From a virus (lineage: Duplodnaviria; Caudoviricetes): 64,000 nucleotides of DNA. The stretch spans positions 39,980 through 103,979 of the IMG/VR virus record IMGVR_UViG_3300044840_000108; one strand, given 5' to 3'. Shown piece by piece: positions 5,714 to 56,449 of the stretch. How positions within the stretch are numbered: the stretch's first letter is position 1; each line of letters starts with the position of its first letter. Under the pieces are notes generated by a model. The model did not search any database. It worked only from the letters and a program-made list of their open reading frames with translations, and had not been told where the DNA came from. The translations under genes were made by a program, and so were the position numbers.

Positions 5714-6040
5714 ATGGCCCGCCTCGACCCGCGGGAGCGGTACGACTGGGTCACCGGCAGGTGGTATGTCCTGCCAGCCCGGGTACCGCTCCCGCGGGTC
5801 CAGCTCATCACCCACCGGCACGTCTGCCCGGACGGCACCGCGGTGACGGTGAAGGCGCAGTGGATCTCCCCCGTGCAGGCCACCCTGTACCGGTGGTCGA
5901 TCGCGGGCGAGCGGGCCGGGTGCACGTCGTCGCTGTCCCTACCGGAGACGCCACCGGACTGGTCTGGTGTGGACGACCTGCACCCTCAGCCAATTCTGGA
6001 CGTTTCCGGATCAACAGGTGCGTGTCGCGTCGCGCGGTAG
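5714..6040 (+). CDS. Hypothetical protein
   Basis: ATG immediately follows upstream stop. Confidence 0.5.
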   Translation: MARLDPRERYDWVTGRWYVLPARVPLPRVQLITHRHVCPDGTAVTVKAQWISPVQATLYRWSIAGERAGCTSSLSLPETPPDWSGVDDLHPQPILDVSGSTGACRVAR

Positions 6041-14950: not shown

Positions 14951-16303
14951 TTATGCCCGGGCGAGGTCAACGAACCGGCTGTAGTGCAGTTGGTGGGCCA
15001 CGGTAATGGTGCTGGTTGGGCCGGCGCGGTGTTTCGCGATGATCAGGTCAGCTTCGCCCGCGCGAGGGTCGTCCCGTTCCCACGCGTCCGGGCGGTTGAG
15101 CAGGATCACCAGATCCGCGTCCTGTTCCAGCGAACCGCTTTCACGCAGGTCAGACAGCATGGGTCGTTTGTCGGTGCGCTGCTCCGGGCCGCGGTTCAAC
15201 TGCGACACCGCGATGACCGGGACATCCAGCTCTTTAGCGAGCAACTTCAGGTTTCGGGAGAACTCCGACACCTCCTGCTGCCGGGACTCGACCCGCTTCC
15301 CGGAGGTCATCAGTTGCAGGTAGTCCACGACGATGAGGCGCAGGTCGTTGCGCTGCTTGAGCCTGCGTGCCTTGGCCCGGATCTCCATCATCGTCAGGTT
15401 CGGCGAGTCGTCGATGAACAGGGGGGCTTCGTTGATTTCCCCCATACGGCGGGCGAGCCGGGTCCAGTCGTCGTCGGACATGCGGCCACTACGCATGTCC
15501 TGCAACCGGATCTTGCATTCGGCGGACAGGATGCGCATCATGATCTCGCTGCGGGACATCTCCAGGGAGAAGATGGCACTCGTCAGGTGTTGGTCGATTG
15601 AGCAGCTTCGGGCGATATCGGTTGCTAGCGTGCTTTTGCCGACTCCCGGCCTGGCGGCAATGATGATCATCTGGCCGCCTTGCAAGCCGTGGATCAAATC
15701 GTCCAAGTCGGTGATCCCCGTCTTCACCCCCAGCGAATGGCCGCCGCGGGATGCGATCGCATCCAACTCGTCCACCGTGGGCTGCAACAACGCCTCGAAC
15801 ACCTGGTAGTCCTCGGCCATGCGCCGCTCGGTGACCTGGTACACCTCGGCCTGCGCCCGATCCACCACGCCATCGACGGTGGCCCCGTCCGCGCCGGCAT
15901 AGCCCATCTGCACAATCCGGGTGCCGGCCTCGACCAGTCGGCGCAGCACCGCCTTCTCGGCCACGATCTCCGCGTAGTAACCCGCGTTGGCCGCGGTCGG
16001 CACGGTGGCGATCAGCGTGTGCAGGTAGGGCGCGCCACCGACCCGTACCAGTTCCTTGCGGCGCCCCAACTCCGCAGCCACTGTCACCGCGTCTGCCGGC
16101 TCACCCCGGCCATACAAGTCCAGGATGCAGTCGTACACGGCCTGGTGTTTCGGCAGATAGAAGTCGTTTGGCCCCAGTCCCTCGACCACGTCGGCAATGG
16201 CGTCCTTGGACAGCATCATCCCGCCGAGCACGGACTGTTCGGCCTGCAAGTCCTGCGGCGGCATCCGCTCGCCAGTGCTCGGATACAGCTCGACAACGGT
16301 CAC
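14951..16303 (-). CDS. dnaB: Replicative DNA helicase DnaB
   Basis: PPQDLQAEQSVLGGMML; AARPGVGKS; FSLEMS; VVDYLQLM; SDLRESGSLEQDAD. Confidence 0.97.
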   Translation of the reverse strand: MTVVELYPSTGERMPPQDLQAEQSVLGGMMLSKDAIADVVEGLGPNDFYLPKHQAVYDCILDLYGRGEPADAVTVAAELGRRKELVRVGGAPYLHTLIATVPTAANAGYYAEIVAEKAVLRRLVEAGTRIVQMGYAGADGATVDGVVDRAQAEVYQVTERRMAEDYQVFEALLQPTVDELDAIASRGGHSLGVKTGITDLDDLIHGLQGGQMIIIAARPGVGKSTLATDIARSCSIDQHLTSAIFSLEMSRSEIMMRILSAECKIRLQDMRSGRMSDDDWTRLARRMGEINEAPLFIDDSPNLTMMEIRAKARRLKQRNDLRLIVVDYLQLMTSGKRVESRQQEVSEFSRNLKLLAKELDVPVIAVSQLNRGPEQRTDKRPMLSDLRESGSLEQDADLVILLNRPDAWERDDPRAGEADLIIAKHRAGPTSTITVAHQLHYSRFVDLARA

Positions 16304-16812
16304 AGTTCTGGCCCGTCCTCGTCGGGGCGCAGATCGAAGATCGTTACCTCGATGTCGCCCCCGTGGCCGCCGATCCCGTCCCATTCGAGGCTTTGGGCTT
16401 CCTTGGGTCGGACTCCTGATAGGCCACCCCGGTCGGGTTCCAATGACCGCAGCACGAACATGTGCCAGTCGGTCACCCATAGCCACGGCTTCCTTGTCAC
16501 GTGCACCGTCCAGTGCAGGTACGCCGCCCACGTTCGGATGCGTTCTACCGCAATGCCGTACTCGTGAGAAGGCACTGGGCAACAGGTCGTGTGTGTTGTG
16601 CGCCATGGCATGTAGTTCTCGCTGGCTCCCGACGACGGTTCGAAGACTTCCGAGAGGTCACAGATGTGCGTTGCGTGGTCCGGCAGCGCGGTGTTCATGG
16701 TCAGCTCGATGGCTTCGCTGCGCTCGACCCAGACGTGACCCTCGCCATCAGCAATCGGCTGAACACAGATGTCACAAATCGCCTGTAGATCCGGGGGTGG
16801 CTCATTGGTCAC
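16300..16812 (-). CDS. Hypothetical protein (CDIC motif)
   Basis: Coupled between initiator and DnaB. Confidence 0.65.
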   Translation of the reverse strand: MTNEPPPDLQAICDICVQPIADGEGHVWVERSEAIELTMNTALPDHATHICDLSEVFEPSSGASENYMPWRTTHTTCCPVPSHEYGIAVERIRTWAAYLHWTVHVTRKPWLWVTDWHMFVLRSLEPDRGGLSGVRPKEAQSLEWDGIGGHGGDIEVTIFDLRPDEDGPEL

Positions 16813-18747: not shown

Positions 18748-19539
18748 TCACCGCCGTCCGTCCAGTGGCCGGTAGTACATACCCTGTGCCTGGCGGATCT
18801 CCAGGGCGTGCCGCTCAAGCACCCGAGCCGCCTGCTGTAGCGCCGTTGACCAGTCCTGGCTGGGCATCGGTTGGTGTCGCATCTCGTCAACGACAGCCGC
18901 CGCTGCTTCCCACACTGCCGCCTCCCCAGTCGGGTCGTACCGATCGAAGCTGGGCAGCCGCGAGGGTGCGGGGAACGGCAAGGTGTCATCGATCAGCCGG
19001 TTCCGGGTGTCCCCGCCTGCGGTGCGTAGTTCGGCGACACGTTCGAACAGTGCCCCCGACTGCCGGCCCGGCGCGCTCCGCACGTCAACGGCCCGGAACC
19101 CCCGATCCTGGTAGTACCGGTGCAGGCCAGTGTTGGTGCGCCAGCAGTCCAAGCGCAGGTACAACGCGCCGGCCATCTCGGCACGAGCGCAACACCAGTC
19201 GAGCAGCAGGTCCCCCAACCCTCTGCTGCGACGATCCGAGCGGATCATGAACTTGTAGAGGTACAGCGCCGGCTGCGCCGCCTCAAGGGGAGTCCAGAAG
19301 TCCATATCGGCAGCGTCCAGGGTGAGGCTGGCAGCGATGTCGCCCGCGCCGGTGGTGATGACATAGGTGGTGCCCGCGTTGATCGAGTCGCGAATGTTGC
19401 GCTCTCCCGTGCTGGACACGGTCCACTGCTCGATTCCCTTGCAGCGCAACCATTTCTCTGCGTGAGCGCGCAAGCTGATAACAGCGTCAGTGTCGGCAGG
19501 CGTGGCGTAGCGGATGTGGTAGTCCACGGTAGGCGTCAC
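18748..19539 (-). CDS. GNAT-family acetyltransferase
   Basis: ALYLYKFMIRSDRRSRGLGDLLLDW...LRLDCWRTNTGLHRYYQDRGF. Confidence 0.9.
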   Translation of the reverse strand: MTPTVDYHIRYATPADTDAVISLRAHAEKWLRCKGIEQWTVSSTGERNIRDSINAGTTYVITTGAGDIAASLTLDAADMDFWTPLEAAQPALYLYKFMIRSDRRSRGLGDLLLDWCCARAEMAGALYLRLDCWRTNTGLHRYYQDRGFRAVDVRSAPGRQSGALFERVAELRTAGGDTRNRLIDDTLPFPAPSRLPSFDRYDPTGEAAVWEAAAAVVDEMRHQPMPSQDWSTALQQAARVLERHALEIRQAQGMYYRPLDGRR

Positions 19540-20360
19540 TCGGGCTCCTGTGTGGGTGTGGTGGAAGTGTCGGGTTGCGGCACGTCAAGCACATACTTCA
19601 GGTACTGCGAGGCGGCGTCGATCACGTTGACGATGACTCGTATGCGTCGCCCAGTCTCGTCCATGCCGACTCGGGCAAACTCAAGAACTGGTGTGCCAGG
19701 CTGAAGCGCCAAAAGCTTGATCTCGTCATCGGACGGCATCCGGGCCCGGATCTCGTCCACAAACTGGGTCTGCCGAATGCCAATTGACCGCATGATCCCG
19801 CCGTGCTTCGTAATGTTTTCGGCAATCAGCAACGGCGGCTCGCCGTCAGCGTCGGTCCGGACTGCGATGTCGTGCGGAAACCAAGAGTCGGCTATCACAA
19901 CCGGTACCCATGGCATGTCGGAGTCTTGTCGCACCATGCGAATACGACGCCGACGGAGCAGCCGCGTCCGGATCTCCGTGTCCAACCATCGGGCGATTGG
20001 CCGGGTGGCCTTTTCCCAGCCCACCGTCACCTCCTGGCGGGCTTGCCAATTCTGAGCGGCTACATCCTGCCCCCACTGGTCCCGGCCCTGGTCGGGGTCG
20101 TCAGCGTAGACGCGCTCAAATTTCGACGCATCGAAATACAGCTCCAGATGTTGTCGAACCACGCGGCCCGCGCCACGCCGGGTGGCGACTAGGCCCGCTT
20201 GTTCCAGTTGCGAAAACGCCCGCCGGGCAGTGTCTCGCGAGCAGCCGTATCGCTCCATTAGGTCGTTCTCGGTCGGCAGCCGATCGCCGGGCATGTAGTC
20301 GCCCTGGTCGATCTGGGTGCGCAGGTCGTCGTACATGACCTGCCATCGCGGCCGCCTCAA
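19536..20360 (-). CDS. GntR/HutC-family repressor (Kor/TraR-like; wHTH plus UTRA)
   Basis: LPTENDLMERYGCSRDTARRAFSQLEQAGLV..RRGAG; UTRA C-terminus; divergent from transfer operon. Confidence 0.92.
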   Translation of the reverse strand: MRRPRWQVMYDDLRTQIDQGDYMPGDRLPTENDLMERYGCSRDTARRAFSQLEQAGLVATRRGAGRVVRQHLELYFDASKFERVYADDPDQGRDQWGQDVAAQNWQARQEVTVGWEKATRPIARWLDTEIRTRLLRRRRIRMVRQDSDMPWVPVVIADSWFPHDIAVRTDADGEPPLLIAENITKHGGIMRSIGIRQTQFVDEIRARMPSDDEIKLLALQPGTPVLEFARVGMDETGRRIRVIVNVIDAASQYLKYVLDVPQPDTSTTPTQEPE

Positions 20361-20384
20361 CGCGCTCCCTCCGTTCGTTGCATG

Positions 20385-20460
20385 TTGATGACCGTACAGC
20401 ACTTGCGCCCGTCCGACAAAGCTCGTACTGTACGGATGTAAGCAAGTTTGACCGTACAAA
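20385..20460. promoter_or_regulatory. Divergent promoter/operator region with CCGTACA repeats
   Basis: TGACCGTACA twice (direct) and CTGTACGG inverted; lower GC. Confidence 0.6.
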
Positions 20461-26015: not shown

Positions 26016-27431
26016 ATGGAATTACTGCTACTGGCCTTCGCCCTGGCCTACCTGGCGGTGTACCGCGGCGGGGTCGGCACCTACTGCGCCATCACGAAAA
26101 CCGAGCCGCCATGGGTGCGCAACCGCCGCGAACGGCTCGTGAACCACGAAACCGTGAAGGGCCGTAGGGCTGTCGCGGTCGAATCGAACCGCACGATGCG
26201 GGGGTTCCTGGGTCGGCTATGGGGAAACTTGTGGGAGGACGCCAACCGGCTCGCTGCTGAACGGCGCGCTGAACATCAGGCGTGGACCTTGAACGGCGGG
26301 CCCCGGCCACCGGTGTGGCGACGGATCGCGAACTGGTGGTCCGCCGCCCTGCTCGCCGGCAACCAGCAGTCGGCCCCGGCCAGCAACGACACCGATACGG
26401 ACACTGAGTCGTGGGATGTGTGCCTGCATCCGGTGGAGCGGCCGGACGGAGAACTGGGGTCATGCGGGCGGCGCTACTCGTACACGGTCGACCCGGACAC
26501 GAATAGGCGATCAACCTTCGACTGTGGCCAGCACCTGCCACTGGAGCCAGTCCAGCCGCCGCCCGCCGTGCCGGTTCCGGCGCCAACCCCGGCGCTGCCC
26601 GAACTACCCGCCACGCCGGTTGCTCCGTTTCTACAACCGGACGACTGCCCGGTCTCGCCAACGGAACGTCATGACTGGCAGGAGCGGGAAACGACGCAGG
26701 GCGCGAGGCGTGGGTGCGTGTACTGCCTCGCCGGATTCGATGCTGAATTGCTGTCGACGAGGCCCGAGCCAGGGTGCCCCTGGATTCGGCCAGGGACTCG
26801 CCAGGCGTGTGGGCAGCCGCTCTACCTGGACACCTCGTGGTGCGCCAACCACTACGCCATCGGCAGCTTGAGTGAATGCCAGTGGGGCAGCGGTAACCCG
26901 GCAGTGCCGAACTGTCCGAACGCGCGGCTGCCGTTCCAGCCGTTCTGCGAAGAACATGACGCCGAGTTCGTGTCCCGCACCACCAATCCAAATGATGCTC
27001 CACCCGCCTCGGCGGGAACCACCGAAACGTCCGCCAGTACTGCCGCATCCGACTCGCTGGCGACGGTCACACCCATCAATCGCACCACCAATCGAGAGGA
27101 CTCACCTGTGAGTACCCCCACGAACGCCGCCACCGAGGTGGCCACCGTCCAGACGCTGCTCGTGTTCGCCGACTCGCTCGTCGCGAACGGCAATGTCGAG
27201 TGGGCCCAGAGGATGGAGCAGGTCCGCACCGCCGCGACCGACTCCGGCCTGGCCAACGACCCCCGCATCCTCGCGGTGTTCAGCAGGGTCGAGGAACTCG
27301 CCCAGGGCATCGCCGCCCAGGGCACCGAACTCACCGCCGCACTGAACGCGGGCCACGTCCAGGCGGCGGAGAACGTGTCCGGGCTCGGCAGCCGGGCCGC
27401 CGACAAGACCACCACCTACCAGAACCAGTAA
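26016..27431 (+). CDS. TraA-like pre-TraB protein: TM, Cys-rich centre, helical C-terminal domain
   Basis: Directly upstream of TraB; in-frame internal GTG with RBS at 27108. Confidence 0.65.
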   Translation: MELLLLAFALAYLAVYRGGVGTYCAITKTEPPWVRNRRERLVNHETVKGRRAVAVESNRTMRGFLGRLWGNLWEDANRLAAERRAEHQAWTLNGGPRPPVWRRIANWWSAALLAGNQQSAPASNDTDTDTESWDVCLHPVERPDGELGSCGRRYSYTVDPDTNRRSTFDCGQHLPLEPVQPPPAVPVPAPTPALPELPATPVAPFLQPDDCPVSPTERHDWQERETTQGARRGCVYCLAGFDAELLSTRPEPGCPWIRPGTRQACGQPLYLDTSWCANHYAIGSLSECQWGSGNPAVPNCPNARLPFQPFCEEHDAEFVSRTTNPNDAPPASAGTTETSASTAASDSLATVTPINRTTNREDSPVSTPTNAATEVATVQTLLVFADSLVANGNVEWAQRMEQVRTAATDSGLANDPRILAVFSRVEELAQGIAAQGTELTAALNAGHVQAAENVSGLGSRAADKTTTYQNQ

Positions 27432-27529
27432 CCGGTACGACCGTTCCCGCCGAGCCAGGGCCACGTCCTGGCCCGTGCGGAAACAGCCGGCACCTCCGAC
27501 CACCACTCAAACCAGCCGGGAGGCACCTC

Positions 27530-29692
27530 ATGGACTTGGACCAACACGTCCTCGACCAGTCCGACGCCGACCATGAGGCCCAGTGGCGGCGCACCGAACG
27601 ATTCCGCCAGCACGACGCCAGACTCGACCCGGAAGAGGAGTCAGCGCAGCGGCCGTGGCGAATCAACGCGCGCCGCCAGTTCGTGCCGCTGCCGGTCGCG
27701 GCACTGCTGTGGAGTGCCGCAGAAGCCGCACACCTGGCCCCTGGCACATGGCCTTACGGGGCGCCAGCGGCGGCCGGTGTGTACTTCGTGGCGGCGGTGA
27801 CCTGGTGGCACAACTGGTCTCGCGAGCATCCCGAGAATCGGACAGAACGGCGGCGCTGGGCCTACACCGTCATCGCCGGGGGGGCGGCGTGGTTGATGTG
27901 GGCTGCGACGACTGGTGTCGGGGGTGCGGCGACCCTGCTGCTCGCTGGCGGGGGTACGGCACTGATGCTGCCCTACTGGACCCGGAACAGCCCGTGGTGT
28001 CCCGAGACCACATACGAGCCGGAGGAGTTGCCCGAACCCCCGCCGCCACCGCTGTTGGAGCCGGTCACGGTGGACAGTCGGACCGCGAACCAGATGTTTT
28101 GGGACACCGTCGTCGCCCCCACCGTGGCGGGGATGGGGGGTACGCGACTGATCGACCCGGACATTACCGACGACTACGAGCAGTACACGGTGCAACTGGT
28201 CCCCGGCCGGCAAACCACCGGTTCCGCCATTGCCGCCGCCACGGCCATCGCGTCGGCGTACGGCCGCGGCCTGGACACCGCCCAAGTCATCCCGCACCCG
28301 TCGGGCGAGCAGGACAAAGCCATCGTCCGGCTGGCGAAGGCGAACCCGCTCGCGGTGACCCGCTACTACCCGGGCCCCGCGCAGGCGATCGACCTGACCG
28401 GCGGCAACATCAAAGTTCTGATCGCCTACCGGGCTGACGGGTCACCGGTGTGGTGGACGTTCTACCTCCACGAGTGGGGAGCCCTGGGCGGCGCGGTGTT
28501 CGGGGACACCGGCAGCGGCAAGTCGATGCTGCTGCGGGTCCTGCTCACGTCCGCCGCCTACACCGGGCTGATCGCCACGATCGTGGCCTGCCCGCAGGGC
28601 GGCCAGTCCTACCCGATGTGGATCAAACACGGGCATTGGCCAGCGGCGGACGCCGACGAGATCATGCGTCAGGCCCGCGCGCTGGCCGAGGCGCACCGGG
28701 TCCGGGGCAAAATCAACCGGCTGCGGGCCCCCATTCTGGGTCGGGACGTGCACGTCCCGACCCGTGAGGAACCGATGATCTTGTGGGTCGTGGACGAGAT
28801 CCACAAGATGATGGAGCACCCAGACGCCGCCGAGTTCTACGAGATCGCGGACAAGATCGAACGCGAGGGACGCAAGACCGGTATCCGCATGCTGGTCGCC
28901 GACCAGGACCCGTCCGTGCCGGCCACGTTCGGCAACCGGACGCCGCTGCGCCGCAGCTTGCTCGCCGCCCAGTGCTACTGCCTGCGGCTGGGTGGCGACG
29001 TGTCCGGGATGCTGCCCGGCACGAAACTCAACCCCACGAGCCTGCCTCAGAAGTGGCCGGACGGCACCCGCGCGGCAGGTCTGGGTGTGGTGCACGGCGA
29101 AGCCGAAATGTCCCGAGTGGTGGTCCTCAAGGACCAGTGGGCGCTGGCCGAACAGGCCCCGAAGATCGCGATCGAGCGGGCCGTGGCGAAACGGATGGGC
29201 CGCGACTACCTGGAACGGTTCACTCGCGCCCTCGCCGAGGACGCCGTGACCGCAGCGGAGCTACAGGTCGACGACCCAGAACTGGTGGCGGAACTGCTGC
29301 GAGACAACCCCGAGTTGGCGGCGGCACTGCCGGCGGCCCAGGCCGAACTGACCCGGCGGGCGGCTGCGTCGGCACCGGTGGCGTCCAGTGGCCAGCCGGT
29401 CGCGGCGAACGTGCGGCAACTGTTCGCCCCCGGCGTCCCGGTGTACGCGCTGCCCGTCGCCACCCCATCGGCACCGGAGAAGTGGACCTGCCTGGACGCG
29501 GTCCGCAGGGCGCTGCAAGCCGGCGCCGAGCGGTACGGCGACATCGAGGCGAAGGCAGTCAAGCCAGACGGCAAGCGGTACAGCGAAACCGCCGTCCGGA
29601 ACGCCTTGGCCGAACTGACCAACTTGGGCGAGATCGCGGACGACCCGGACAACAAGAACTGGGGCCGCTACATCTACACCGCTGTCGCTTGA
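27530..29692 (+). CDS. traB: TraB-like FtsK/SpoIIIE conjugative DNA translocase
   Basis: N-terminal TMs; GDTGSGKS Walker A; WVVDEIH Walker B; REGRKTGI..LVADQ; C-terminal wHTH. Confidence 0.88.
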   Translation: MDLDQHVLDQSDADHEAQWRRTERFRQHDARLDPEEESAQRPWRINARRQFVPLPVAALLWSAAEAAHLAPGTWPYGAPAAAGVYFVAAVTWWHNWSREHPENRTERRRWAYTVIAGGAAWLMWAATTGVGGAATLLLAGGGTALMLPYWTRNSPWCPETTYEPEELPEPPPPPLLEPVTVDSRTANQMFWDTVVAPTVAGMGGTRLIDPDITDDYEQYTVQLVPGRQTTGSAIAAATAIASAYGRGLDTAQVIPHPSGEQDKAIVRLAKANPLAVTRYYPGPAQAIDLTGGNIKVLIAYRADGSPVWWTFYLHEWGALGGAVFGDTGSGKSMLLRVLLTSAAYTGLIATIVACPQGGQSYPMWIKHGHWPAADADEIMRQARALAEAHRVRGKINRLRAPILGRDVHVPTREEPMILWVVDEIHKMMEHPDAAEFYEIADKIEREGRKTGIRMLVADQDPSVPATFGNRTPLRRSLLAAQCYCLRLGGDVSGMLPGTKLNPTSLPQKWPDGTRAAGLGVVHGEAEMSRVVVLKDQWALAEQAPKIAIERAVAKRMGRDYLERFTRALAEDAVTAAELQVDDPELVAELLRDNPELAAALPAAQAELTRRAAASAPVASSGQPVAANVRQLFAPGVPVYALPVATPSAPEKWTCLDAVRRALQAGAERYGDIEAKAVKPDGKRYSETAVRNALAELTNLGEIADDPDNKNWGRYIYTAVA

Positions 29693-39764: not shown

Positions 39765-40312
39765 CGCGCGCGGTGCAGCATCGATGCGTGGATCACGTCG
39801 ACCCGCGCGCGGGCTTCCGCGGCGACCAGCGGGTCCCGGGTGACGGTGAGTTCGTTGTCCTGCAACGTTTCGCCCGAGGTGGACCAGTTCGTGGATCCGG
39901 ACACCACGTCCAAACCATCCACGATGACCAGCTTCAAATGCATGATCGCGCCACGTTCGGACCGGCCCGCGACCACCGAGTTCGCCGCCAGTGCCGTCTT
40001 GGCGAGCAGGGCCTTTTCGTGGACCCCACCGGCTTGGGATGAGTCCAGGGTGAGCTGCACGTAGCAGTGCTCGTCGTCCAGTTTGGTGTGCAGCACCGCG
40101 GCCAGGTCGTCGTCGTCGAATCCGTACATGGCGACCACGAGACTGGTGGTGGCGGCGCCGATCACCGCGAGCAGGGCAGTGTGCACGTCATCTACCGGCG
40201 AGTAGAAAGTTCGGCGGTTCGGCGGGTAGCCGGGCGGAAACGGGGTTCGTTTGTGCTGGTCAAGTGCCGCCAGGTCAGGTATCGCCACGGCCGTCACCGT
40301 CCCGTGTGTCAT
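39761..40312 (-). CDS. Phospholipase D-family protein (single HKD)
   Basis: [10 protein letters not shown]....GSTNWS....DNE. Confidence 0.88.
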
Positions 40313-46733: not shown

Positions 46734-49700
46734 TCACTGGAAGGCGTTGGACAGGCCGAACCCCGAGTTGCGGCCCGACAACTGCAAAATCCCCTGTTGC
46801 ACGCTGCGGACCAGGGCGTTTTCGGTGGTGACCGACCCGGCGACATATACGTTGATGGTGATCCCGCCGCCAGTCCCGCCGGCAGGGACCGCCAGGCCAA
46901 CGGGGGCCATAGCAGCACTGCGGCTACCCGCTGCGGTGACAGACAGCCCGATCGGGCTACCGGCAGTGTCCATCGCAGCCTGTCGGACGCCTGCAACCGC
47001 GGCAGTCACGAGATGCAAGTTGTCGGCAACACCCTGTGCGATACCGGCCGGTATCCACTTGCCGACCTGTTCGGCCATTACTTTGGAGGGGGACGAGATA
47101 CCCATCGCCGACTTGAACCCGGACACTATGCCAGACGCGAAACTGGTGACCGCGTGCCACGCCGCGCTGGCGGCGTTCTCGATGCCGTGGATCAGGCCCA
47201 TGACCAGGTTGTATCCGGCGTCTTTCAGCCATGTTCCGACATCCTTGAAGAACCCGCCGATGTTGCTGGGCAGGTTCTTGAACCAGGTAACGACATTCTC
47301 GAATGCGTCGGCTATGCCTTTACCGAGACCCTTGATCACTGTCAAGCCCGGCGAGCGTAGCCATTCGCCGGCATCGGTGAAGTGTTTCAGCAGCTCACTG
47401 GGCAAATCCTTGAAAAATTTCACGGTCGCGTCGAATCCGGTGGTGATTCCGTGCCACAAACCATGGATCACTTTGGCGCCGGCTTCGTGCAGCCATTCTT
47501 CAGCTTTGTCGTTGAGCTTTTTAATGTTGCCCGGCAGGTCCTTAAACCATTGAACGGTGTCTTGCCAGGCGACCGTCAGTCCGTGAGTAAAGCCTTTCCA
47601 CCCTTCCACCGCGAGCTTGACGAGTAGCCCGGCCAGGAACCCCAGCGCGAACCCGATCTCGTGTGGCAGGTTGCGCAGGAACGCCAAGGTCGCCTGCCAG
47701 GCAACGCTCAGCCCGTGCGTGAAGCCCTTCCATCCGTCGGTGGCCAGACGGGTCAGTAGGCTCCCCAGTGAGGACAGGGCGGCGCCGATTTTGTCGGGAA
47801 TGTCGGTAACAAACTTGACGACATCGCCAACGAATCCGCCAATGTCCCTGGCCGCGTCGGAGAAGAACCCAGTGACCGCCTTCCATACGTCGGAGAAGAA
47901 CCCGATGATGTGCGACCAGTTGCTGATGATCAGATAGGCGGCGGCGGCGATCGCTACCACGATTGCCGTGATGATGAGAACGACCGGGTTGGCCAGCAGT
48001 GCGGCGGTGAAGTTCCACACAGCGATCGTGGCCGCGACGAGTGCCGCAACCAGGACGACGCCGATGACGCCCGCCAGCACCTTCGCTACAGTCTGGTGCT
48101 GCGCGAACCATTTCACTACGTCAGAGAAAACCCCCACAATCTTTGATGCCACCGGCAACAGTTTCTGGCCGATTTCGATCGCTAGCGCATCCAGGCTGCC
48201 CTTAGCTTCGGACATTTTCTGATTGAACGTGCCCTGGATGTCGGACCAGCCCTTAACGTTACCTTTGGCGTCGGCGGTAGATTGCGAGATCTGCTTGACC
48301 GCATGGTTGGTGTAGTCCGCGTTTTGCCCGGTCAACATCAACGCCACATTCATGCCGGTCTGGTCACCCATCGCAGCCTTCAGCGCCTGCGAATAGGTTT
48401 GCATCACGGTCGCACCAGACTGCTGTTCCATGCCGATGCCGTGGGTTGACTTGGCGAGCGTCGCGAACGCGGACGCCTGGCCAGCAGCCTCAACGGGCAG
48501 TGCCCTGGCGGCTTTCGAGTACTCGCCCCACGACATGGACCCGTCCAACGCTTTTCGTCCCAGGTCCTGTACGGCGGGCGACAGTCGGGACAACGCGGTT
48601 TGCAGTTGCAACACCACGGTGGTGGCCTGTCCACCCATCTGGTGCTGGATCGCGTTCGCGACCTCCTGCACCGTGCCGGTCAGACCCTTGCTGCCCAGGT
48701 CTCGCGACACCGACTGGGACGTCATGCCCAGCAGTGCGAGTTCCTTGGCCTGCGGCGCGGTGACGGTTTGCAGGTGGCCGATGGTGTGCGCCAAGTTCTG
48801 GGTGGCCTGGTCGGCGGACACGCCGTGCACCGTCATCGCCGCGAGCGACCCCAACACGTCACTGAGGCTGATGTTCGCGACTGACGCGGCCGGTAGCACC
48901 GAATGCAACGCGGACGCCAAATCCTGGAACGTCATCTTCCCGGCGGATGTGGCACCGATGAACTTCGACATGACATCGGTGGCGTCCTTGGTGACTTCCC
49001 CCGCGCCCTTGGCATTGGGGTAGTAGTCGCGCATCGCGGAGGACAGGGCGTCCGCGACGGTGGTCGCGTCCGCACCTTCCGCCTTGGCGCCCTGCTCGGC
49101 TGCCTTCAGTACACCGAGCCCTTCGGCACCGTGATATCCAGCGGACTCCACCGTGTACATGTGCTTAGCGAGCTGCTCAGCGCCGACGCCGACCTGCCCG
49201 GCCATGTCCAACATGCCTTGGCGGACCATGCCGATGTTGGCTTGGATCTCCCCGCCGGACGTGAGCAGCCGGTTGGTGGAGGTCTCGTAGTCGGCAGCCA
49301 TTTTGACAACCGCCACCGCCACCACGCCAGCCGCAAGCGCGGGCAGCTTCATCGCCCCGGAGAAGGCTGTCAGCTTCGCCCCGGCACCAGTGGACGCAGC
49401 GGCGGCGACATCGACCTTGCCGGCGGTGATAGCCATCTGGTCGCCGTAAGCCTTGGTCGAGGCGATCATTGCCTCGTTCTCGGCGGAGATCTTGGTGGCC
49501 ATGGCGGACCATTCGGTGGCGTTCGCCTGTGCGGTCATCGCCGTCTCGGCCCGCACCTGGGCCATCTCGGCCAGGACCCGGTCCCACGCCGCGACTTCCT
49601 CGCTCGTGGCGGTGGACACGGCCGCGGCTTCCGCCTCGGCGGCGGCGCCCGCACCAGCCCCGGCGGTGGCGGCACCCGCCGCGGAGCCCTCGGCGGCGCC

Positions 49701-49943
49701 AGCGACGGCCGCGCCTCCACCGGCCATGCCGGCGGACTCGCCCACGCCTGCCAATTCGGTCCGCAGGGCTGCCGCGGATTCGGCGGTGCGGGCCAGCATC
49801 GCGTCGATCTCGCCGAACATCACATTGAGGGCGGCCACCATGGATTCGCCTGCGGTCGCCGACTCCTCAAACGAGCGCAGCAGAGGCGCATTCACGGCGC
49901 GCAAGGTCAAAAACAGGTCCGCGAGCTCGGCTTCGGAGGCCAC
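46734..49943 (-). CDS. Tail tape measure protein
   Basis: ~1070 aa, Ala-rich; TP901-type core; W/F-periodic repeats. Confidence 0.95.
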   Translation of the reverse strand: MASEAELADLFLTLRAVNAPLLRSFEESATAGESMVAALNVMFGEIDAMLARTAESAAALRTELAGVGESAGMAGGGAAVAGAAEGSAAGAATAGAGAGAAAEAEAAAVSTATSEEVAAWDRVLAEMAQVRAETAMTAQANATEWSAMATKISAENEAMIASTKAYGDQMAITAGKVDVAAAASTGAGAKLTAFSGAMKLPALAAGVVAVAVVKMAADYETSTNRLLTSGGEIQANIGMVRQGMLDMAGQVGVGAEQLAKHMYTVESAGYHGAEGLGVLKAAEQGAKAEGADATTVADALSSAMRDYYPNAKGAGEVTKDATDVMSKFIGATSAGKMTFQDLASALHSVLPAASVANISLSDVLGSLAAMTVHGVSADQATQNLAHTIGHLQTVTAPQAKELALLGMTSQSVSRDLGSKGLTGTVQEVANAIQHQMGGQATTVVLQLQTALSRLSPAVQDLGRKALDGSMSWGEYSKAARALPVEAAGQASAFATLAKSTHGIGMEQQSGATVMQTYSQALKAAMGDQTGMNVALMLTGQNADYTNHAVKQISQSTADAKGNVKGWSDIQGTFNQKMSEAKGSLDALAIEIGQKLLPVASKIVGVFSDVVKWFAQHQTVAKVLAGVIGVVLVAALVAATIAVWNFTAALLANPVVLIITAIVVAIAAAAYLIISNWSHIIGFFSDVWKAVTGFFSDAARDIGGFVGDVVKFVTDIPDKIGAALSSLGSLLTRLATDGWKGFTHGLSVAWQATLAFLRNLPHEIGFALGFLAGLLVKLAVEGWKGFTHGLTVAWQDTVQWFKDLPGNIKKLNDKAEEWLHEAGAKVIHGLWHGITTGFDATVKFFKDLPSELLKHFTDAGEWLRSPGLTVIKGLGKGIADAFENVVTWFKNLPSNIGGFFKDVGTWLKDAGYNLVMGLIHGIENAASAAWHAVTSFASGIVSGFKSAMGISSPSKVMAEQVGKWIPAGIAQGVADNLHLVTAAVAGVRQAAMDTAGSPIGLSVTAAGSRSAAMAPVGLAVPAGGTGGGITINVYVAGSVTTENALVRSVQQGILQLSGRNSGFGLSNAFQ

Positions 49944-49985
49944 GGACCTCACCCCCGGCGGTGTGGTCCGGTGACGTGGAGACGG

Positions 49986-51313: not shown

Positions 51314-52477
51314 CTAGTATGCGGCGCTTGTGAAGTTCGTGAGGGTCGCGGCGATCGCCCCACCGTCAGTGGCGTTGTAGATCCCCTGCAAGTTGAAATC
51401 GGCCTGCACGTACGCGGGGGACAGGTCCCGCTTACCGGTGGTCCACCCCGACTGGGACATCGTCAAGGTGAGGGTCGAACCGCACCCACCGGTGGACACC
51501 GGTTGCACCAAGGTCGCCACGGCGGGCTGCTGGGTGTTGTTGGTGTATAGGTTCAGTTCGGACGACGCCTCGAAGATGGTTTTCAAGACGCCGTCAGATT
51601 CGAGTGCACCTTGGAACACCTCGCGCGGCGCCTGCACCCCGTCGGAGGACTGGATCGCCTCCACCGCCCGCTTAATGGTGTAGTCCAAGGTCAGACCACG
51701 GGTGGAGGAGGCCCCGGCGTCGGTCATCGCCCACTGCCAGCCCAGGGCTGGCGCGAGGGTGGTCCACGTCGGTACCGCTGAACTCGCCGAAACCCCGGGG
51801 AAGCTGGTCAATTTCGCGGACAGGGTGACCGCGGCCTTCGGGTCGATCTTGATTTGCAGGTCGGAGAACGCCGCGTAGGAGTAGGACAGCCAGGACACGG
51901 TGTCCCACACCAGCAGCGAGTATGTGGGGCGCGCGGCGGCCGGGTTCTGCTTGAACGAGTGCGATGACGCGGACACGATCGTGGAGGTAGTGATCGTGTG
52001 CGCATATTTCAGGCCGCCGGTGGGGGTGGTGATGGGGATCGCGTAAGGCCCCGCGCCGGTCGGGGTGCCAGTGGTGGCATACTCCACGTTCAGGCCGCCA
52101 GCGTCCGCAAGTTGGATGGTCGAGGCGAGCGGGATGGACGCGGTCGACGAAATCGACGTGGCCCCCACGATGCTCGACGCCGCGAACGTCGTGGAGATCC
52201 CGGGGGTGACGGTGTCCGGGCCGATGATGCCGCGCAACACGTGCCCCGTGATGTCGGGATAGGCCATCAGGTCGATGCTCCAGGTCGCGTCCACCGGGCC
52301 CTGGTAGATGCCCTGCAACACGGTGTCATTGGCCCGCACCGACTCGTCCCGCAACGGTGCGTACACGTCGATGAATTCCGCCTTGGTGAACGGGACCCAC
52401 ATGTTGGGCACCAGGTAGGTGCCGGCCACGGCCTCCCGTGCGATACCCAGCTTCGCGAGGCGGGAGAGCTGTGTCAC
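51314..52477 (-). CDS. Major tail tube protein
   Basis: LGIAREAVAGT; size and position. Confidence 0.85.
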   Translation of the reverse strand: MTQLSRLAKLGIAREAVAGTYLVPNMWVPFTKAEFIDVYAPLRDESVRANDTVLQGIYQGPVDATWSIDLMAYPDITGHVLRGIIGPDTVTPGISTTFAASSIVGATSISSTASIPLASTIQLADAGGLNVEYATTGTPTGAGPYAIPITTPTGGLKYAHTITTSTIVSASSHSFKQNPAAARPTYSLLVWDTVSWLSYSYAAFSDLQIKIDPKAAVTLSAKLTSFPGVSASSAVPTWTTLAPALGWQWAMTDAGASSTRGLTLDYTIKRAVEAIQSSDGVQAPREVFQGALESDGVLKTIFEASSELNLYTNNTQQPAVATLVQPVSTGGCGSTLTLTMSQSGWTTGKRDLSPAYVQADFNLQGIYNATDGGAIAATLTNFTSAAY

Positions 52478-52683
52478 GACGTCGCCTCCTCGTCAGACGC
52501 GGCGGCGGACCGGCCAGTTTTCCGGGGTGTCACTGGCGGAGCCGAGACCGGCGTCGGGTCGGTGTCGACTGGTTCGAACCCGGCCAGCAGGTCCGGGTGG
52601 TTGACTTCCTGGCCGGGGGCCGCGAGGTACGGCGGGTCGTCACCCACGATCAGCGGATAGGGTTGGGCGTTGCGCTGGCGCAC
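52474..52683 (-). CDS. Small virion-associated protein
   Basis: AGGAG RBS; coupled ORF. Confidence 0.6.
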   Translation of the reverse strand: MRQRNAQPYPLIVGDDPPYLAAPGQEVNHPDLLAGFEPVDTDPTPVSAPPVTPRKTGRSAAASDEEATS

Positions 52684-52738: not shown

Positions 52739-53257
52739 TCAGATGACGACCTCGAAGTCGTCGGCGAAATAGGTCATGTCCGCCCGCAACAGCCGCTGCG
52801 ACAGGGTCTGTTCGGGGTCGGTGAACTGCACGTCAATGTGCGAGGGCACGGGGGCTTCCGCGACCGACAGGAAATACCCCCCATGGGTATGGTCGTCCAG
52901 CTTGCCGCGGACCCGCTCAAGCACCAACTCAATCGCCGCGTCGAACGCGCGCTGCTCGGTCTCGGCGATCCCCACCGCTGTGCTGGTCGAGCCGGTCCGC
53001 CACTCCAACCGCACATGGAAGCCGTACCGGGGCTTCTTGCGCTGGTTGGCCCACCGCTCGTCGGCGATCGAGGTGCGACGCAGATACAGGGCGGTGGCGT
53101 TCTGGTTGGGGGTCCGAGGCCAATACCCCTGCACAATCTCGAATGGCCCGCCAGCCGATGCCAGCAGCGCGGGCAGCCCATCCCCGGACGCGGCCAGGAA
53201 CGCGGCCTCCCGGTCCACGGCGTTCGCGGTCGTCGGTGGCGACAATGGAGGCGTCAC
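52739..53257 (-). CDS. Tail terminator / head-tail joining protein
   Basis: Position and size. Confidence 0.7.
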   Translation of the reverse strand: MTPPLSPPTTANAVDREAAFLAASGDGLPALLASAGGPFEIVQGYWPRTPNQNATALYLRRTSIADERWANQRKKPRYGFHVRLEWRTGSTSTAVGIAETEQRAFDAAIELVLERVRGKLDDHTHGGYFLSVAEAPVPSHIDVQFTDPEQTLSQRLLRADMTYFADDFEVVI

Positions 53258-53260
53258 CAG

Positions 53261-53869
53261 TCACCTCCGGCGACGTCGCCACACCCGGTGGGCCCGCACC
53301 CGGTGCCGGATCACGATGCGGGACCGGTGCTTACGGCGCCGGGTGTGAATCAGGCCGACCCGGTTACGTCGGCGGTGCGCCGAGATCAAGGTGCGGCTGG
53401 CGTACCGGCCAACCCTGGGTGGACGGGTCGTGCGGTGGTAGCGGTGCACACCAGGTGCCGACACGCCAGTCGAGGGGCGCCGGGGGTGGTGCTTCCCGCG
53501 CATCGCCGCCGACAGCTTGGCTTTGGTGGCCGCCGACAAGTGGGTGCCTTTCCGGGCGGCGGACAGCTTGGCGCGGGTAGCGGCACTGAGGTGGGTCCCT
53601 TTTCGTGCCGCAGACAACTTGGCCTTGGCCGATGCGGAAAGGTGCCGGCCCTTCATGGCGGCAGCCAGTTTGGACTTGGTGGCCGCCGACAGGTGTGTCC
53701 CTTTGCGGGCGGCCGATAGTTTCGCGCGAGTCGCCGCAGACGGATGGCGCCCTCGGAGCTTGGCGCTGATCTTGCTCTTGGTGGCTGATGACAGCCGCCG
53801 GCCCCTCAGCTTCGCACTGATCTTCGACTTGGTTGCCGCAGTCAGGGGATGGCCCTTGTGGTGCGCCAC
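53261..53869 (-). CDS. Highly basic NUMOD3-repeat protein (seven 17-aa repeats, no Asp/Glu)
   Basis: G(T/R)HLSAAT(K/R)AKLSAA(R/M)K repeats; GGAGG RBS; Arg/His-rich tail. Confidence 0.8.
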   Translation of the reverse strand: MAHHKGHPLTAATKSKISAKLRGRRLSSATKSKISAKLRGRHPSAATRAKLSAARKGTHLSAATKSKLAAAMKGRHLSASAKAKLSAARKGTHLSAATRAKLSAARKGTHLSAATKAKLSAAMRGKHHPRRPSTGVSAPGVHRYHRTTRPPRVGRYASRTLISAHRRRNRVGLIHTRRRKHRSRIVIRHRVRAHRVWRRRRR

Positions 53870-53910
53870 TGGCCTCCACCGGCCTCACCCCAGGTCGGTA
53901 CCAGCAACGG

Positions 53911-54594
53911 TCACGTGATCTTCCGTTCATAGGGGTTCAGCCAGGCCACAGCGCGGGCTTCCAACGCCCCTGGGTCGTGCCCATGGGTTTGGGTCATCGG
54001 GTCCAGTTCGGTCGCGGCGATGGATGCGGCCATCCAAATACAGGCCCGGACCAGGTCGGCTGGCACGGCGACGGTGTACCCGCCGCCGTAGGTGACCTTG
54101 GCCAGGCTGCCGATGGGGATGTACTGGCCTAGGTTGAACCACACGTGACCGGAGTCCGGATCCGGCCCGATGTACTGGGTGGTCGACATGGTCTGTGACC
54201 CACCGTAGGACCGCACGATGGTGATCGACACGTTGCTGTAGGTCCAGTACTCGGTGAACTGCGGCGCGTACTGGTTGAGCCACATGTGCCTGACCAACGC
54301 GCTGGCCCCGACCGCGGACGCGTAGGACCGGCCCAGCGTGCCGGCCAGATCCATCGGCAGGTTCGACGAGTCGGCGTACTCGTCGGGGTCCATGCCTTCG
54401 CAGCGGTGCGTCTCCGTGACCGCAGTAAACGGTGCTAACCGCCGGTCGGCTTCGGTTTCGCACCCGCGGGTGGCCTGCAGCATCAGCGAGGCGAGTGCAT
54501 CCGGCGTATAGGAACGCACCAGGTCCACGAACGGACCGGCTTGCATCTGGGCGGCGGTGGCCAGTGGTACGGGGTTGTCGACCACCGCCACCAC
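53911..54594 (-). CDS. Head-tail adaptor protein
   Basis: VTYGGGY...PADLVRAC. Confidence 0.78.
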   Translation of the reverse strand: MVAVVDNPVPLATAAQMQAGPFVDLVRSYTPDALASLMLQATRGCETEADRRLAPFTAVTETHRCEGMDPDEYADSSNLPMDLAGTLGRSYASAVGASALVRHMWLNQYAPQFTEYWTYSNVSITIVRSYGGSQTMSTTQYIGPDPDSGHVWFNLGQYIPIGSLAKVTYGGGYTVAVPADLVRACIWMAASIAATELDPMTQTHGHDPGALEARAVAWLNPYERKIT

Positions 54595-54972: not shown

Positions 54973-56337
54973 TCAGACACCGACGGCGACACGGGCAATT
55001 CGGCCCGTATATTTAGGCGCCCGCAGTGCTAGGCAAGTGTCGGTGACCAGCGCATACGGCAGCGTGTCCGGGCTGCTGGTCGTTGGGTACACGTCCAGCG
55101 GCTGCACCTCGCGGACATACGGCCGGATCAAGAAGTTCCGGTCCCGCGACATCAGGTAAATGTTCTCCAGCCCGACTGCGGGCGGGTACAGCCCGGTGTT
55201 GGTGCCGACGTAGCTGGCCGGGCCGGCTGCTGGCACGGTCGAGCCGTTCTGCGGCACCAACGCGGTACCGGTGTCGATGATCGACGTGGTGAGGATCGGG
55301 GTAACCCCGTCCGCCCCCAGGCCGACGATCGCATCGACGTAGCCCAGAAGGGTTTCGGTGCCGGTCGCGGTGCTGCGGTACACCCCGTACAGCACTGGCT
55401 GCGCCCCGTCCAGGCCGGCGGGGGTGGCGAACGCCAGGGTGGCGATGGAGGTCGTGCCGGTCGTGGCCTGCGATACCTCCGCCGACGCGGCCATTTCACC
55501 CTGTCGGGCGATGACCGGCGCAACCCGGTAGTAGTAGGTGGCAGCGGCGAGGGTGCCGCCGCTGGTGGCGGTGGTGGTGGTGACCGTGCCCATTGACAGT
55601 GCCCGCGTCGACAAGAAGCTGGACTTGATCAGCGGGATGTCGCGGTACGTCGGCACCAGCAAGCCGGCCGCGATCTCCACGCGGTCGTTGAAACGCTGCT
55701 GGTTGGTGAGCAGTTGCGCGATCTTGCTGATCGCGGTGTTCGACATGACGATCTGCCACGAGTCGTCAAACACGGACATGGCGGCGTTCTGCTCCACCAT
55801 GTCAATGAGTTCGTCCAGCATCGCCAGGGTGAGGGTGCCGCCAGCCTTGTCCTGCGCATTCTGGTTCGCACCCGTGAATGTGGCGACCAGCGACGACAAA
55901 CCGTCATACTGCGGCCGTGCACCGAACTGGGTGGTACCCGCGTTGCCCCACAGGATACCCGTTTCGATATCCCAGTAGATGCCGCGGATCGAACCCTCGA
56001 TCTCCGTGTGCCGCAGGTCGCCGATCACCTGGCGGGTCACGTTTTGTGCGTAGCCCGTGACCGCCCCGACGACCTGAATGTGCGCCATCTTGAAGTTTTG
56101 CTGCACGTAGGTCGAGTTGTTGACCGGCTGCGCGCCGCCGTCAGACACCCAGCCACCCATAGCTACCTGGGTGCGCTGGTTGAAGTAATAGGTATCGCTG
56201 TCCCATTTCACGGTGGGGATGGAACGGCACAGCGGGGAGTAGCGGCGTTGGTATTCCAACAGGATCGGGTCGATAATCTTCGGGATGAGGGCGGTCGCAT
56301 TGGCTGCGAGTAGCGCCTCACGAAGTTCGGAAGGCAT
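54973..56337 (-). CDS. Major capsid protein (HK97 fold) with inserted beta-sandwich domain
   Basis: Follows scaffold; QYDGL, LTLAMLDELID motifs; FN3-like insert TYYYRV...YGVYRST. Confidence 0.88.
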   Translation of the reverse strand: MPSELREALLAANATALIPKIIDPILLEYQRRYSPLCRSIPTVKWDSDTYYFNQRTQVAMGGWVSDGGAQPVNNSTYVQQNFKMAHIQVVGAVTGYAQNVTRQVIGDLRHTEIEGSIRGIYWDIETGILWGNAGTTQFGARPQYDGLSSLVATFTGANQNAQDKAGGTLTLAMLDELIDMVEQNAAMSVFDDSWQIVMSNTAISKIAQLLTNQQRFNDRVEIAAGLLVPTYRDIPLIKSSFLSTRALSMGTVTTTTATSGGTLAAATYYYRVAPVIARQGEMAASAEVSQATTGTTSIATLAFATPAGLDGAQPVLYGVYRSTATGTETLLGYVDAIVGLGADGVTPILTTSIIDTGTALVPQNGSTVPAAGPASYVGTNTGLYPPAVGLENIYLMSRDRNFLIRPYVREVQPLDVYPTTSSPDTLPYALVTDTCLALRAPKYTGRIARVAVGV

Positions 56338-56343
56338 AGGTGA

Positions 56344-56449
56344 CCTTTCGGCGTGAGTGAAACGGGTCGGTTGAGCGACCATCTCTGCCGAAAGGCACCA
56401 CCACGGAAACGTCTCCGTCGTGGCGGTCAAAAGCGGATGGAACGTCTCC
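56344..56449 (-). promoter_or_regulatory. Structured capsid leader sequestering the RBS
   Basis: CCTTTCGGC...GCCGAAAGG stem includes GAAAGG SD; second hairpin; GGAGACGTT twice. Confidence 0.6.

Follow-up and report, generated by a model that had tools for sequence, protein, structure and literature searches.

The right-hand 64 kb of a 104-kb provirus record in IMG/VR (IMGVR_UViG_3300044840_000108, positions 39,980–103,979; Duplodnaviria, Caudoviricetes), here called the window, carries between its head–tail adaptor and tail terminator genes a minus-strand gene (53261–53869) whose 202-residue product contains no aspartate or glutamate. This locus raises the question of what such a protein, referred to below as the polycation, does among the neck genes of a siphovirus and where it came from. 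Judged by its sequence, it is a known DNA-binding module, the NUMOD3 repeat of homing endonucleases, in a new, domesticated architecture and context. As for its function, we tentatively favour a domesticated, sequence-nonspecific DNA-binding polycation that would be a minor virion-associated component binding the phage's own DNA in the head or neck.

The gene and its protein

The open reading frame (ORF) is a real gene, and the features on which the following description relies are listed here.

53261–53869, minus strand: polycation gene, 202 amino acids, GTG start, TGA stop, no Asp or Glu, net charge +59
53489–53845, minus strand: seven tandem 17-residue NUMOD3 units, residues 9–127 (Pfam PF07460, unit table, AlphaFold helices)
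53390–53488, minus strand: Arg/His/Pro-rich spacer, residues 128–160, its length and sequence varying among homologues (alignments, AlphaFold)
53264–53389, minus strand: conserved basic C-terminal module, residues 161–202, ending in Trp and five Arg (alignments, AlphaFold)
53873–53877, minus strand: Shine–Dalgarno-like GGAGG, 3 nt upstream of the polycation GTG
53264–53268, minus strand: second GGAGG, made by the last two Arg codons of the polycation, 6 nt upstream of the tail-terminator GTG (start 53257)

In this frame the GC content at third codon positions is 0.80 for the repeats as well as for the tail, as in the neighbouring genes, while the plus-strand reading of the same interval is full of stops. 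Overlapping ORFs in alternative frames or on the opposite strand were rejected as coding on account of their off-frame GC pattern and lack of any domain. The gene occurs once, as an exact copy, in the provirus record, and the N-termini of its orthologues line up at the GTG start.

The composition of the protein (38 Arg, 35 Ala, 22 Ser, 21 Lys, 17 His, no Asp, no Glu; pI ∼12) corresponds to 19% Arg, 10% Lys, 8% His and 0% Asp/Glu, and is thus Arg-rich and acid-poor, as in protamine-like viral core proteins. Since the neighbouring proteins carry 7–20% Asp plus Glu, a complete absence of acidic residues among 202 lies far beyond chance; all other structural proteins of the module are acidic, with net charges of −5 to −30.

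Each of the seven units consists of one predicted helix of 12–14 residues and, after it, a basic linker with Gly; in six units the last residue of the linker is His. At the DNA level, Tandem Repeats Finder detected only a 51-nt period (four copies, 65% match). The mean pairwise identity between units is 64% for protein as against 59% for DNA, and 143 of the 230 identical-residue positions (62%) are written with different codons, from which it follows that the repeats are old and have been kept as protein. An AlphaFold model based on 13 homologues places one helix in each unit, from H11–23 to H113–126, with a per-residue confidence (pLDDT) of ∼70–85. Residues 133–178 (pLDDT < 50) are disordered in the model, a C-terminal helix is predicted at 180–201 and the whole forms a string of helices with no globular packing (predicted TM-score, pTM, 0.22). 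Foldseek found no PDB match for this model, a sequence-profile search of the PDB gave no significant match (the sole match being a ribosomal protein, E = 0.81) and an ESM Atlas search returned matches only below threshold.

The Shine–Dalgarno spacing of 3 nt is shorter than usual, and 41 nt separate the gene from that of the adaptor. Translational coupling to the tail-terminator gene is suggested, because the last two Arg codons of the polycation themselves form a GGAGG 6 nt before the terminator GTG. Scans for promoter-like and terminator-like sites on the strand of the gene, and for Rfam elements, found none flanking it, and the gene is co-transcribed, and probably also co-translated, with the neck genes. 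A first-pass annotation of this stretch, made from the letters alone, had listed the 202-residue frame (leaving its strand unstated), seven tandem 17-residue repeats differing in codons yet sharing a protein pattern, the lack of Asp and Glu, an Arg/His-rich tail ending in WRRRRR and a good ribosome-binding site. These points were borne out: the units are of exactly equal length, none of the 202 residues is acidic, the final Trp is followed by five Arg and the ribosome-binding site is present, though nearer the start codon than usual.

A NUMOD3 array without a nuclease

A Pfam search with the polycation identified NUMOD3 (PF07460) with an E value of 3.3e-15 and 56.2 bits against a cutoff of 20.4, and no other family; syntenic orthologues score 41–72 bits with the same profile. 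The units show the NUMOD3 core pattern Ser-x-x-Thr-(Lys/Arg)-x-Lys-(Ile/Leu)-Ser, preceded by His or a hydrophobic residue and repeated in tandem, with Lys at unit position 8 invariant in all seven and Ser at position 2 in six (Thr in the first unit). The acidic residue or residues that follow Ser in the H-S-E-E-T-K form are not kept, and most units have Ala-Ala there. The same split is seen between classes of relatives, position 3 being Ala in 83% of the acid-free units (n = 190) and Glu in 86% of the ordinary ones (n = 228). No nuclease domain was detected in the polycation, in its 74-residue tail alone or in other frames and opposite-strand ORFs over the locus; the C-terminal module matches no Pfam family, and NCBIfam has no family for any of the neck genes.

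In the structures of I-TevI and I-HmuI, NUMOD3 is a minor-groove α-helix preceded by a base-contacting His (PMC2853131, PMC3664794), and the polycation units retain that His position together with the Ser/Thr/Lys/Lys pattern. The likeness to the NUMOD3 module of homing endonucleases (I-TevI, I-HmuI, I-BmoI) thus comprises the hidden Markov model match, the 16–17-residue unit, one predicted helix per unit and a His before the helix, as in I-TevI H182 (PMC2853131). The polycation differs from that module in having no nuclease domain, Ala in place of the acidic residue(s) at the start of the helix, no acidic residues at all and a private arginine-ended C-terminal module, and in being a vertically inherited gene of the neck slot rather than a mobile one.

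A word-indexed protein search with the polycation returned 227 proteins of two kinds. The first comprises ordinary NUMOD3 proteins, many with GIY-YIG or HNH domains, with a 16–17-residue unit and Glu after Ser; the best match, an HNH–NUMOD3 protein, is 53% identical over the repeats (60% of the query). Proteins of the second kind have the architecture seen in the window, namely repeats poor in acidic residues, followed by a basic spacer and that C-terminal module. A profile of this module, run against 1.84 billion representative sequences, found only 17 proteins of 52–277 residues, in which the module is always C-terminal; those whose sequences were examined consist only of NUMOD3-type units and basic segments, with the module following the units. 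The longer relatives examined proved to be NUMOD3 proteins of the ordinary kind, with acidic residues, and for several of them a GIY-YIG or another nuclease-type domain is precomputed. The division is sharp in the 96 loci that were fetched with the polycation, proteins with 0–1 Asp plus Glu residues and a Lys, Arg and His fraction of 0.31–0.48 standing against proteins with 6–12% Asp plus Glu.

A search of cultured phage genomes with the polycation gave only a homing endonuclease of a Xanthomonas phage, a search weakened by the BLAST low-complexity filter. Of the papers on NUMOD3 listed by a literature search, none deals with an acid-free form in the neck slot, and a search for protamine-like or highly basic phage proteins yielded no tailed-phage counterpart.

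The adaptor–terminator slot

The genes of the module are listed below in the order in which they are read 5′ to 3′ on the minus strand, from portal to tape measure.

Portal, 536 amino acids, minus strand, first in this order
338-residue gene product, minus strand, after the portal; weak matches to minor-head and head-morphogenesis families
Protease–scaffold, 609 amino acids, minus strand, after the 338-residue gene product
54973–56430, minus strand: major capsid protein, 485 amino acids (phrog_752, E = 4e-36; Pfam SU10_MCP)
107-residue gene product, minus strand, between the capsid and adaptor genes
53911–54594, minus strand: head–tail adaptor, 227 amino acids, upstream neighbour of the polycation (phrog_442 'head-tail adaptor', E = 2.1e-7); kept in all syntenic loci
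52739–53257, minus strand: tail terminator, 172 amino acids, downstream neighbour (AlphaFold and Foldseek)
69-residue, then 387-, 215- and 153-residue gene products, minus strand, between terminator and tape measure
46734–49952, minus strand: tape measure protein, 1072 amino acids, given as context

The downstream neighbour was identified by structure prediction. An AlphaFold model of the 172-residue protein, based on an alignment of 16 orthologues (pLDDT 81, pTM 0.80), matched in the PDB the terminator of siphophage R4C (E = 8e-5), T5 p142, the Mu terminator and λ gpU, and since these are tail terminators the slot reads adaptor, polycation, tail terminator, at the junction of the head-completion and tail genes. 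Sequence-profile searches of the PDB with adaptor and terminator gave nothing significant. The earlier placing of the gene among head–tail connector genes is therefore upheld, by a PHROG match on the upstream side and a tail-terminator fold on the downstream side.

In ∼38 of the 96 loci fetched with the protein, an acid-free gene is flanked by homologues of the adaptor and terminator genes, and in four more it directly follows the latter. The syntenic loci comprise dozens of IMG/VR contigs and prophages of Kitasatospora aureofaciens, Streptomyces sp. and Catenulispora pinistramenti, with capsid proteins 49–96% identical to that of the window. Nearly all of the syntenic copies end in 4–7 Arg/Lys residues, while just ahead of this end several unrelated subtypes of sequence are found; tails of an FGLRHH type occur in loci L051 and L091. 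The first-pass annotation had named a lack of homologues at this position as evidence that would count against it; the synteny comparison shows them to be abundant.

A sample unbiased by the polycation was obtained by searching with an alignment of the adaptor instead, and the slot was read in 62 dereplicated loci.

About 42 of 62 loci: acid-poor polycation with NUMOD3 units
3 of 62 loci: acid-free polycation without recognisable NUMOD3 units
4–5 of 62 loci: basic variants not wholly free of acidic residues, two of them carrying an acidic domain at the C-terminus
7–9 of 62 loci: nothing, the adaptor gene abutting the terminator gene
About 7 of 62 loci: other genes, often on the opposite strand

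Where the slot lacks a polycation, none is encoded elsewhere within 5 kb to its left or right. The polycation is dispensable: because it is absent from roughly a quarter to a third of the related phages, it is not an essential part of the structure. The candidate role of an essential structural protein was accordingly rejected, the adaptor gene being directly joined to the terminator gene in some relatives. What has been retained seems to be the charge, since polycations without clear NUMOD3 units fill the same slot.

Several other occupants of the slot were recorded. At L121 (1178–1915) and L123 (1260–1820) it holds an acid-poor protein with one or two NUMOD3-like units, then a longer Ala/Lys/Arg-rich repeat and at least six terminal Arg; for the L123 protein the STPR repeat family (PF21107) gives a weak match that stays below the cutoff (E = 0.0048). 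These STPR-like proteins resemble the polycation as acid-free repeat proteins in the same slot and differ from it in repeat family, the STPR match itself being sub-threshold. A second variant (L079, 3230–4240; L090, 7740–8756; L142, 4846–5862) combines an N-terminal poly-Arg stretch and 3–4 NUMOD3 units with a domain of ∼190 residues that contains acidic residues and ∼45-residue repeats rich in Trp, Lys and Gln, and has no Pfam match. In a third group (L115, 5069–5431; L116, 5666–6031; L152, 5666–5992) a 108–121-residue acid-free basic protein without NUMOD3 units opens the slot and is followed by a 1.5–2.3-kb block of opposite-strand, moron-like genes and then the terminator gene.

Inheritance and selection

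On a quick maximum-likelihood tree of the adaptor (IQ-TREE), the label 'NUMOD3 polycation' requires five changes, compared with 22.9 when labels are shuffled. The window falls in a supported clade of 13 members, all of which carry the polycation, and six of the empty loci form one supported clade. Given so few changes on the tree, the gene is old in the group and mostly vertically inherited, with a few losses or replacements. A sporadic, mobile distribution like that of homing endonucleases is not seen, presence instead following the adaptor tree, and the polycation has been kept while the adaptor diverged to 46% identity.

The ratio of nonsynonymous to synonymous divergence (dN/dS) of the tail module is 0.2–0.7, with synonymous sites near saturation, and that of the whole gene against its closest relative (L001, 8001–8663) is 0.18; on these sequence comparisons the polycation is under purifying selection. 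It is also the most diverged gene of the module in the comparison with L001. It is 69% identical over aligned columns with dS of 1.0–1.5 even in the well aligned ends, whereas the neighbouring genes are 88–96% identical with dS of 0.37–0.76, making dS two- to threefold higher than in the flanking genes (0.37–0.5), although part of the excess in the middle may reflect the alignment of non-orthologous repeats. Because the polycation exceeds its flanking genes in dS, faster turnover or a locally higher rate, or the exchange of cassettes between related phages, may be at work.

These results bear on three further points of the first-pass annotation, which had recognized NUMOD3 with Ala-Ala at the Glu-Glu positions, had seen no nuclease domain and had proposed a 'domesticated' array. 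The NUMOD3 identity is significant well above the cutoff, Pfam sees no other family in the protein and none in the tail or other frames, and Ala-Ala is found in most units, with Ala and Glu dividing the two classes. The domestication of a nuclease-free array is likewise sustained by the homology, by nuclease-bearing relatives with Glu for Ala and by purifying selection. Its functional proposal, a protein inside the virion that would condense DNA or bind a DNA end, or would be injected to shield DNA from host nucleases, is qualified by the lack of the gene in roughly a quarter to a third of related phages and by the copy-number estimate given below.

Acid-free NUMOD3 genes in other phages

Acid-free NUMOD3 genes were also found in the morphogenesis modules of other phages, where no relationship between the flanking genes and those of the window could be detected. 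In L023, which has a Mu-like capsid (phrog_1005), such a gene (5556–5963) lies immediately upstream of a Neck1/tail-completion gene (phrog_26). Its five 22-residue units are nearly identical, which suggests recent amplification, as opposed to the old, diverged units of the window. The capsid of L023 matches only distant Mu-like phages, so that there is no annotated cultured model. In L016 and L018 the acid-free gene is just upstream of a relative of the 387-residue protein, which itself, among cultured phage genomes, matched only a Thermoanaerobacterium phage. An acid-poor NUMOD3 protein is encoded between the large terminase and a portal–MuF fusion gene in L085 (7728–8351), a prophage of Actinocrispum wychmicini, with its order reversed so that the basic segment comes first and the five units last. 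The stand-alone 'NUMOD3 domain-containing DNA-binding protein' (NCBI name), for example protein P0073 of A. wychmicini, shares with the polycation a nuclease-free, acid-poor array in an actinobacterial prophage, and differs in this reversed order, in its location between terminase and portal rather than in the neck slot and in lacking the C-terminal module of the window. With L023, L016, L018 and L085 all carrying acid-free NUMOD3 genes in such modules, the association with morphogenesis genes recurs.

Possible function

From these comparisons we infer DNA binding, a lack of sequence specificity, a virion location and a benefit to the phage, which may fit together as follows. These phages would have made a late-expressed polycation from the DNA-binding arm of a homing endonuclease, each unit being a NUMOD3 minor-groove helix with the acidic residue(s) after Ser exchanged for Ala. 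As the units are NUMOD3 helices with their acids replaced, the array may act as a flexible string of cationic helices able to lie along any double-stranded DNA, to which the disordered Arg/His spacer and the arginine-ended module would add charge and perhaps an anchoring point. Translated together with the neck proteins, between adaptor and tail terminator, the protein would enter the virion in low to moderate copy, bind phage DNA in the head or neck channel and leave with it on infection. The benefit may lie in neutralizing or capping the DNA or in shielding it on entry, and the protein would be a dispensable accessory, like the basic internal proteins of T4.

Phage T4 packages and ejects its internal proteins, which are basic and dispensable and show little conservation between related phages (PMC9026906). 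IPI, IPII and IPIII resemble the polycation in being small, basic, encoded with head genes, dispensable and variable among relatives (PMC9026906). They show no sequence relation to it and, unlike them, the polycation has no recognizable N-terminal capsid-targeting peptide; moreover, IPI is a folded inhibitor, in contrast to a repeat polycation from a siphovirus of Actinobacteria. Adenovirus pVII and baculovirus P6.9 are Arg-rich, acid-poor proteins that coat the packaged genome (PMC10548178, PMC5899202), and both are, like the polycation, encoded among late or structural genes. There is no homology, and the charge is borne here by a recognizable repeat of a DNA-groove-binding type. Tailed-phage heads also pack their DNA more densely and by means of a motor, making bulk coating of the pVII or P6.9 kind unlikely. 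Bulk condensation was considered and judged unlikely on an estimate of copy number, because at +59 per molecule full neutralization would take of the order of thousands of copies. A low-copy role is likelier, since neutralization of the whole genome by a 22-kDa protein is, by the same estimate, sterically implausible in a tightly packed head.

Several observations weigh against a virion-associated DNA binder. The polycation is missing from 7–9 of the 62 relatives and is replaced by unrelated genes in about seven. The copies needed for full neutralization would not fit, which by this estimate leaves a minor component at most. No T4-like N-terminal targeting peptide is evident, the N-termini of the orthologues running straight into the first repeat. 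DNA-bound proteins pass the packaging motor with difficulty, which makes it hard to explain how the polycation would be loaded into the head. The support from the late-operon position is circumstantial. Searches of cultured phage genomes with the locus DNA, the adaptor and the capsid protein gave no match, and no cultured relative, proteome or structure was found.

A DNA-binding polycation might instead stay in the infected cell, where it would, for instance, compact or arrange the replicated phage DNA before packaging, protect that DNA from host nucleases late in infection by coating it, or shut the host nucleoid down. The composition and the NUMOD3 evidence fit such a protein equally well, as does the dispensability of the gene. 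The acid-free NUMOD3 gene between terminase and portal in L085 is a packaging context, and no capsid-targeting signal is evident. This alternative is possible but on balance doubtful: a protein of charge +59 coating the DNA to be packaged would probably impede the terminase motor; genes for host shut-off are as a rule early genes, but this one is embedded in and coupled to the neck genes with no promoter of its own; and its recurrent place in the neck slot, in phages with unrelated flanking genes, would be left unexplained.

Contacts with protein rather than DNA are improbable as the basis of its function. The polycation would then be an electrostatic chaperone or plug for the acidic lumen of the portal, adaptor, terminator or tail tube, or for an acidic scaffold, timing head–tail joining or keeping the channel shut, and its gene would stand where a head-closure (stopper) gene is commonly found. 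Its position next to both adaptor and terminator, the acidity of the neighbouring structural proteins and an arginine-ended terminus kept across different tail subtypes would all suit such a role. However, a small β-barrel stopper fold of the SPP1 gp16 or HK97 gp7 type was not seen in the model or by Foldseek against the PDB, the model consisting of helices only (pTM 0.22) with no structural match. Relatives in which the adaptor abuts the terminator have no structural gap to fill, and retention of the NUMOD3 DNA-contact pattern would be needless.

It is very improbable that a free-standing homing endonuclease gene of the HNH or GIY-YIG type once entered the gap between the neck genes and is now decaying there as a functionless remnant. 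NUMOD3 is otherwise associated with nucleases, the best match is an HNH–NUMOD3 protein and the adaptor–terminator gap is an insertion hot spot in relatives, all of which would suit a relic. Its frame is intact, though, with no nuclease remnant in any frame; protein change has been limited while synonymous divergence saturated, as the dN/dS values for the tail and the whole gene indicate; the repeats are conserved as protein and not as DNA, with acidic residues purged systematically; and the gene was retained through the divergence of the adaptor, with a C-terminal module not seen on nucleases. By these sequence criteria decay is largely refuted.

Arginine-rich, acid-free peptides commonly bind RNA, and the tail gives the impression of a composition like that of small ribosomal proteins. 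An arginine-rich-motif protein acting on the late transcript or on ribosomal RNA is nevertheless hardly credible, since the region contains no Rfam element or terminator to act on, the repeats are of a DNA minor-groove type (PMC2853131) and no significant similarity to RNA-binding families was found.

Other features of the window

A small, very acidic ORF of ∼70–100 residues lies between the terminator and 387-residue genes (52474–52683, minus strand, and equivalents in relatives); it has a conserved C-terminus of Gly-Gly-Glu-Pro type and is present with or without the polycation. ARAGORN reported a tRNA-Ala(GGC) at 49657–49734 (minus strand) inside the tape-measure gene, probably a false positive or else an embedded tRNA-like stretch. 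The left half of the window encodes a DnaB-type helicase (14951–16606), a GntR/UTRA regulator (19536–20459) and an 830-residue FtsK/SpoIIIE-type P-loop protein (27200–29692); this last resembles the TraB protein found in conjugative elements of actinomycetes and is unusual cargo for a siphovirus.

Biological implications

Tailed phages are generally thought to pack essentially naked DNA, the charge of which is neutralized by small cations. A conserved, selected polycation at the head–tail junction of many actinobacterial phages points to an unrecognized component of DNA retention, ejection or protection. Its origin suggests a clear route of domestication: stripped of its nuclease and of acidic residues, the minor-groove module of a homing endonuclease would have turned into a general DNA binder. 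That the slot can be filled by polycations with other types of repeat, or with none, suggests a 'neck polycation' function of a general kind. A bolder proposal, which we consider rather unlikely, is that the particles of this large, uncultured clade of actinobacterial siphophages contain a home-made 'protamine', an acid-stripped nuclease arm loaded at the neck or head that would enter the cell on the genome and cap or shield the incoming DNA against host nucleases or defence systems. If true, no DNA-coating protein built of repeats would have been described in a tailed phage before, and a module of a selfish element would have been turned into a virion component. An acid-free tandem minor-groove binder of this kind may also serve as a tool for DNA compaction or delivery.

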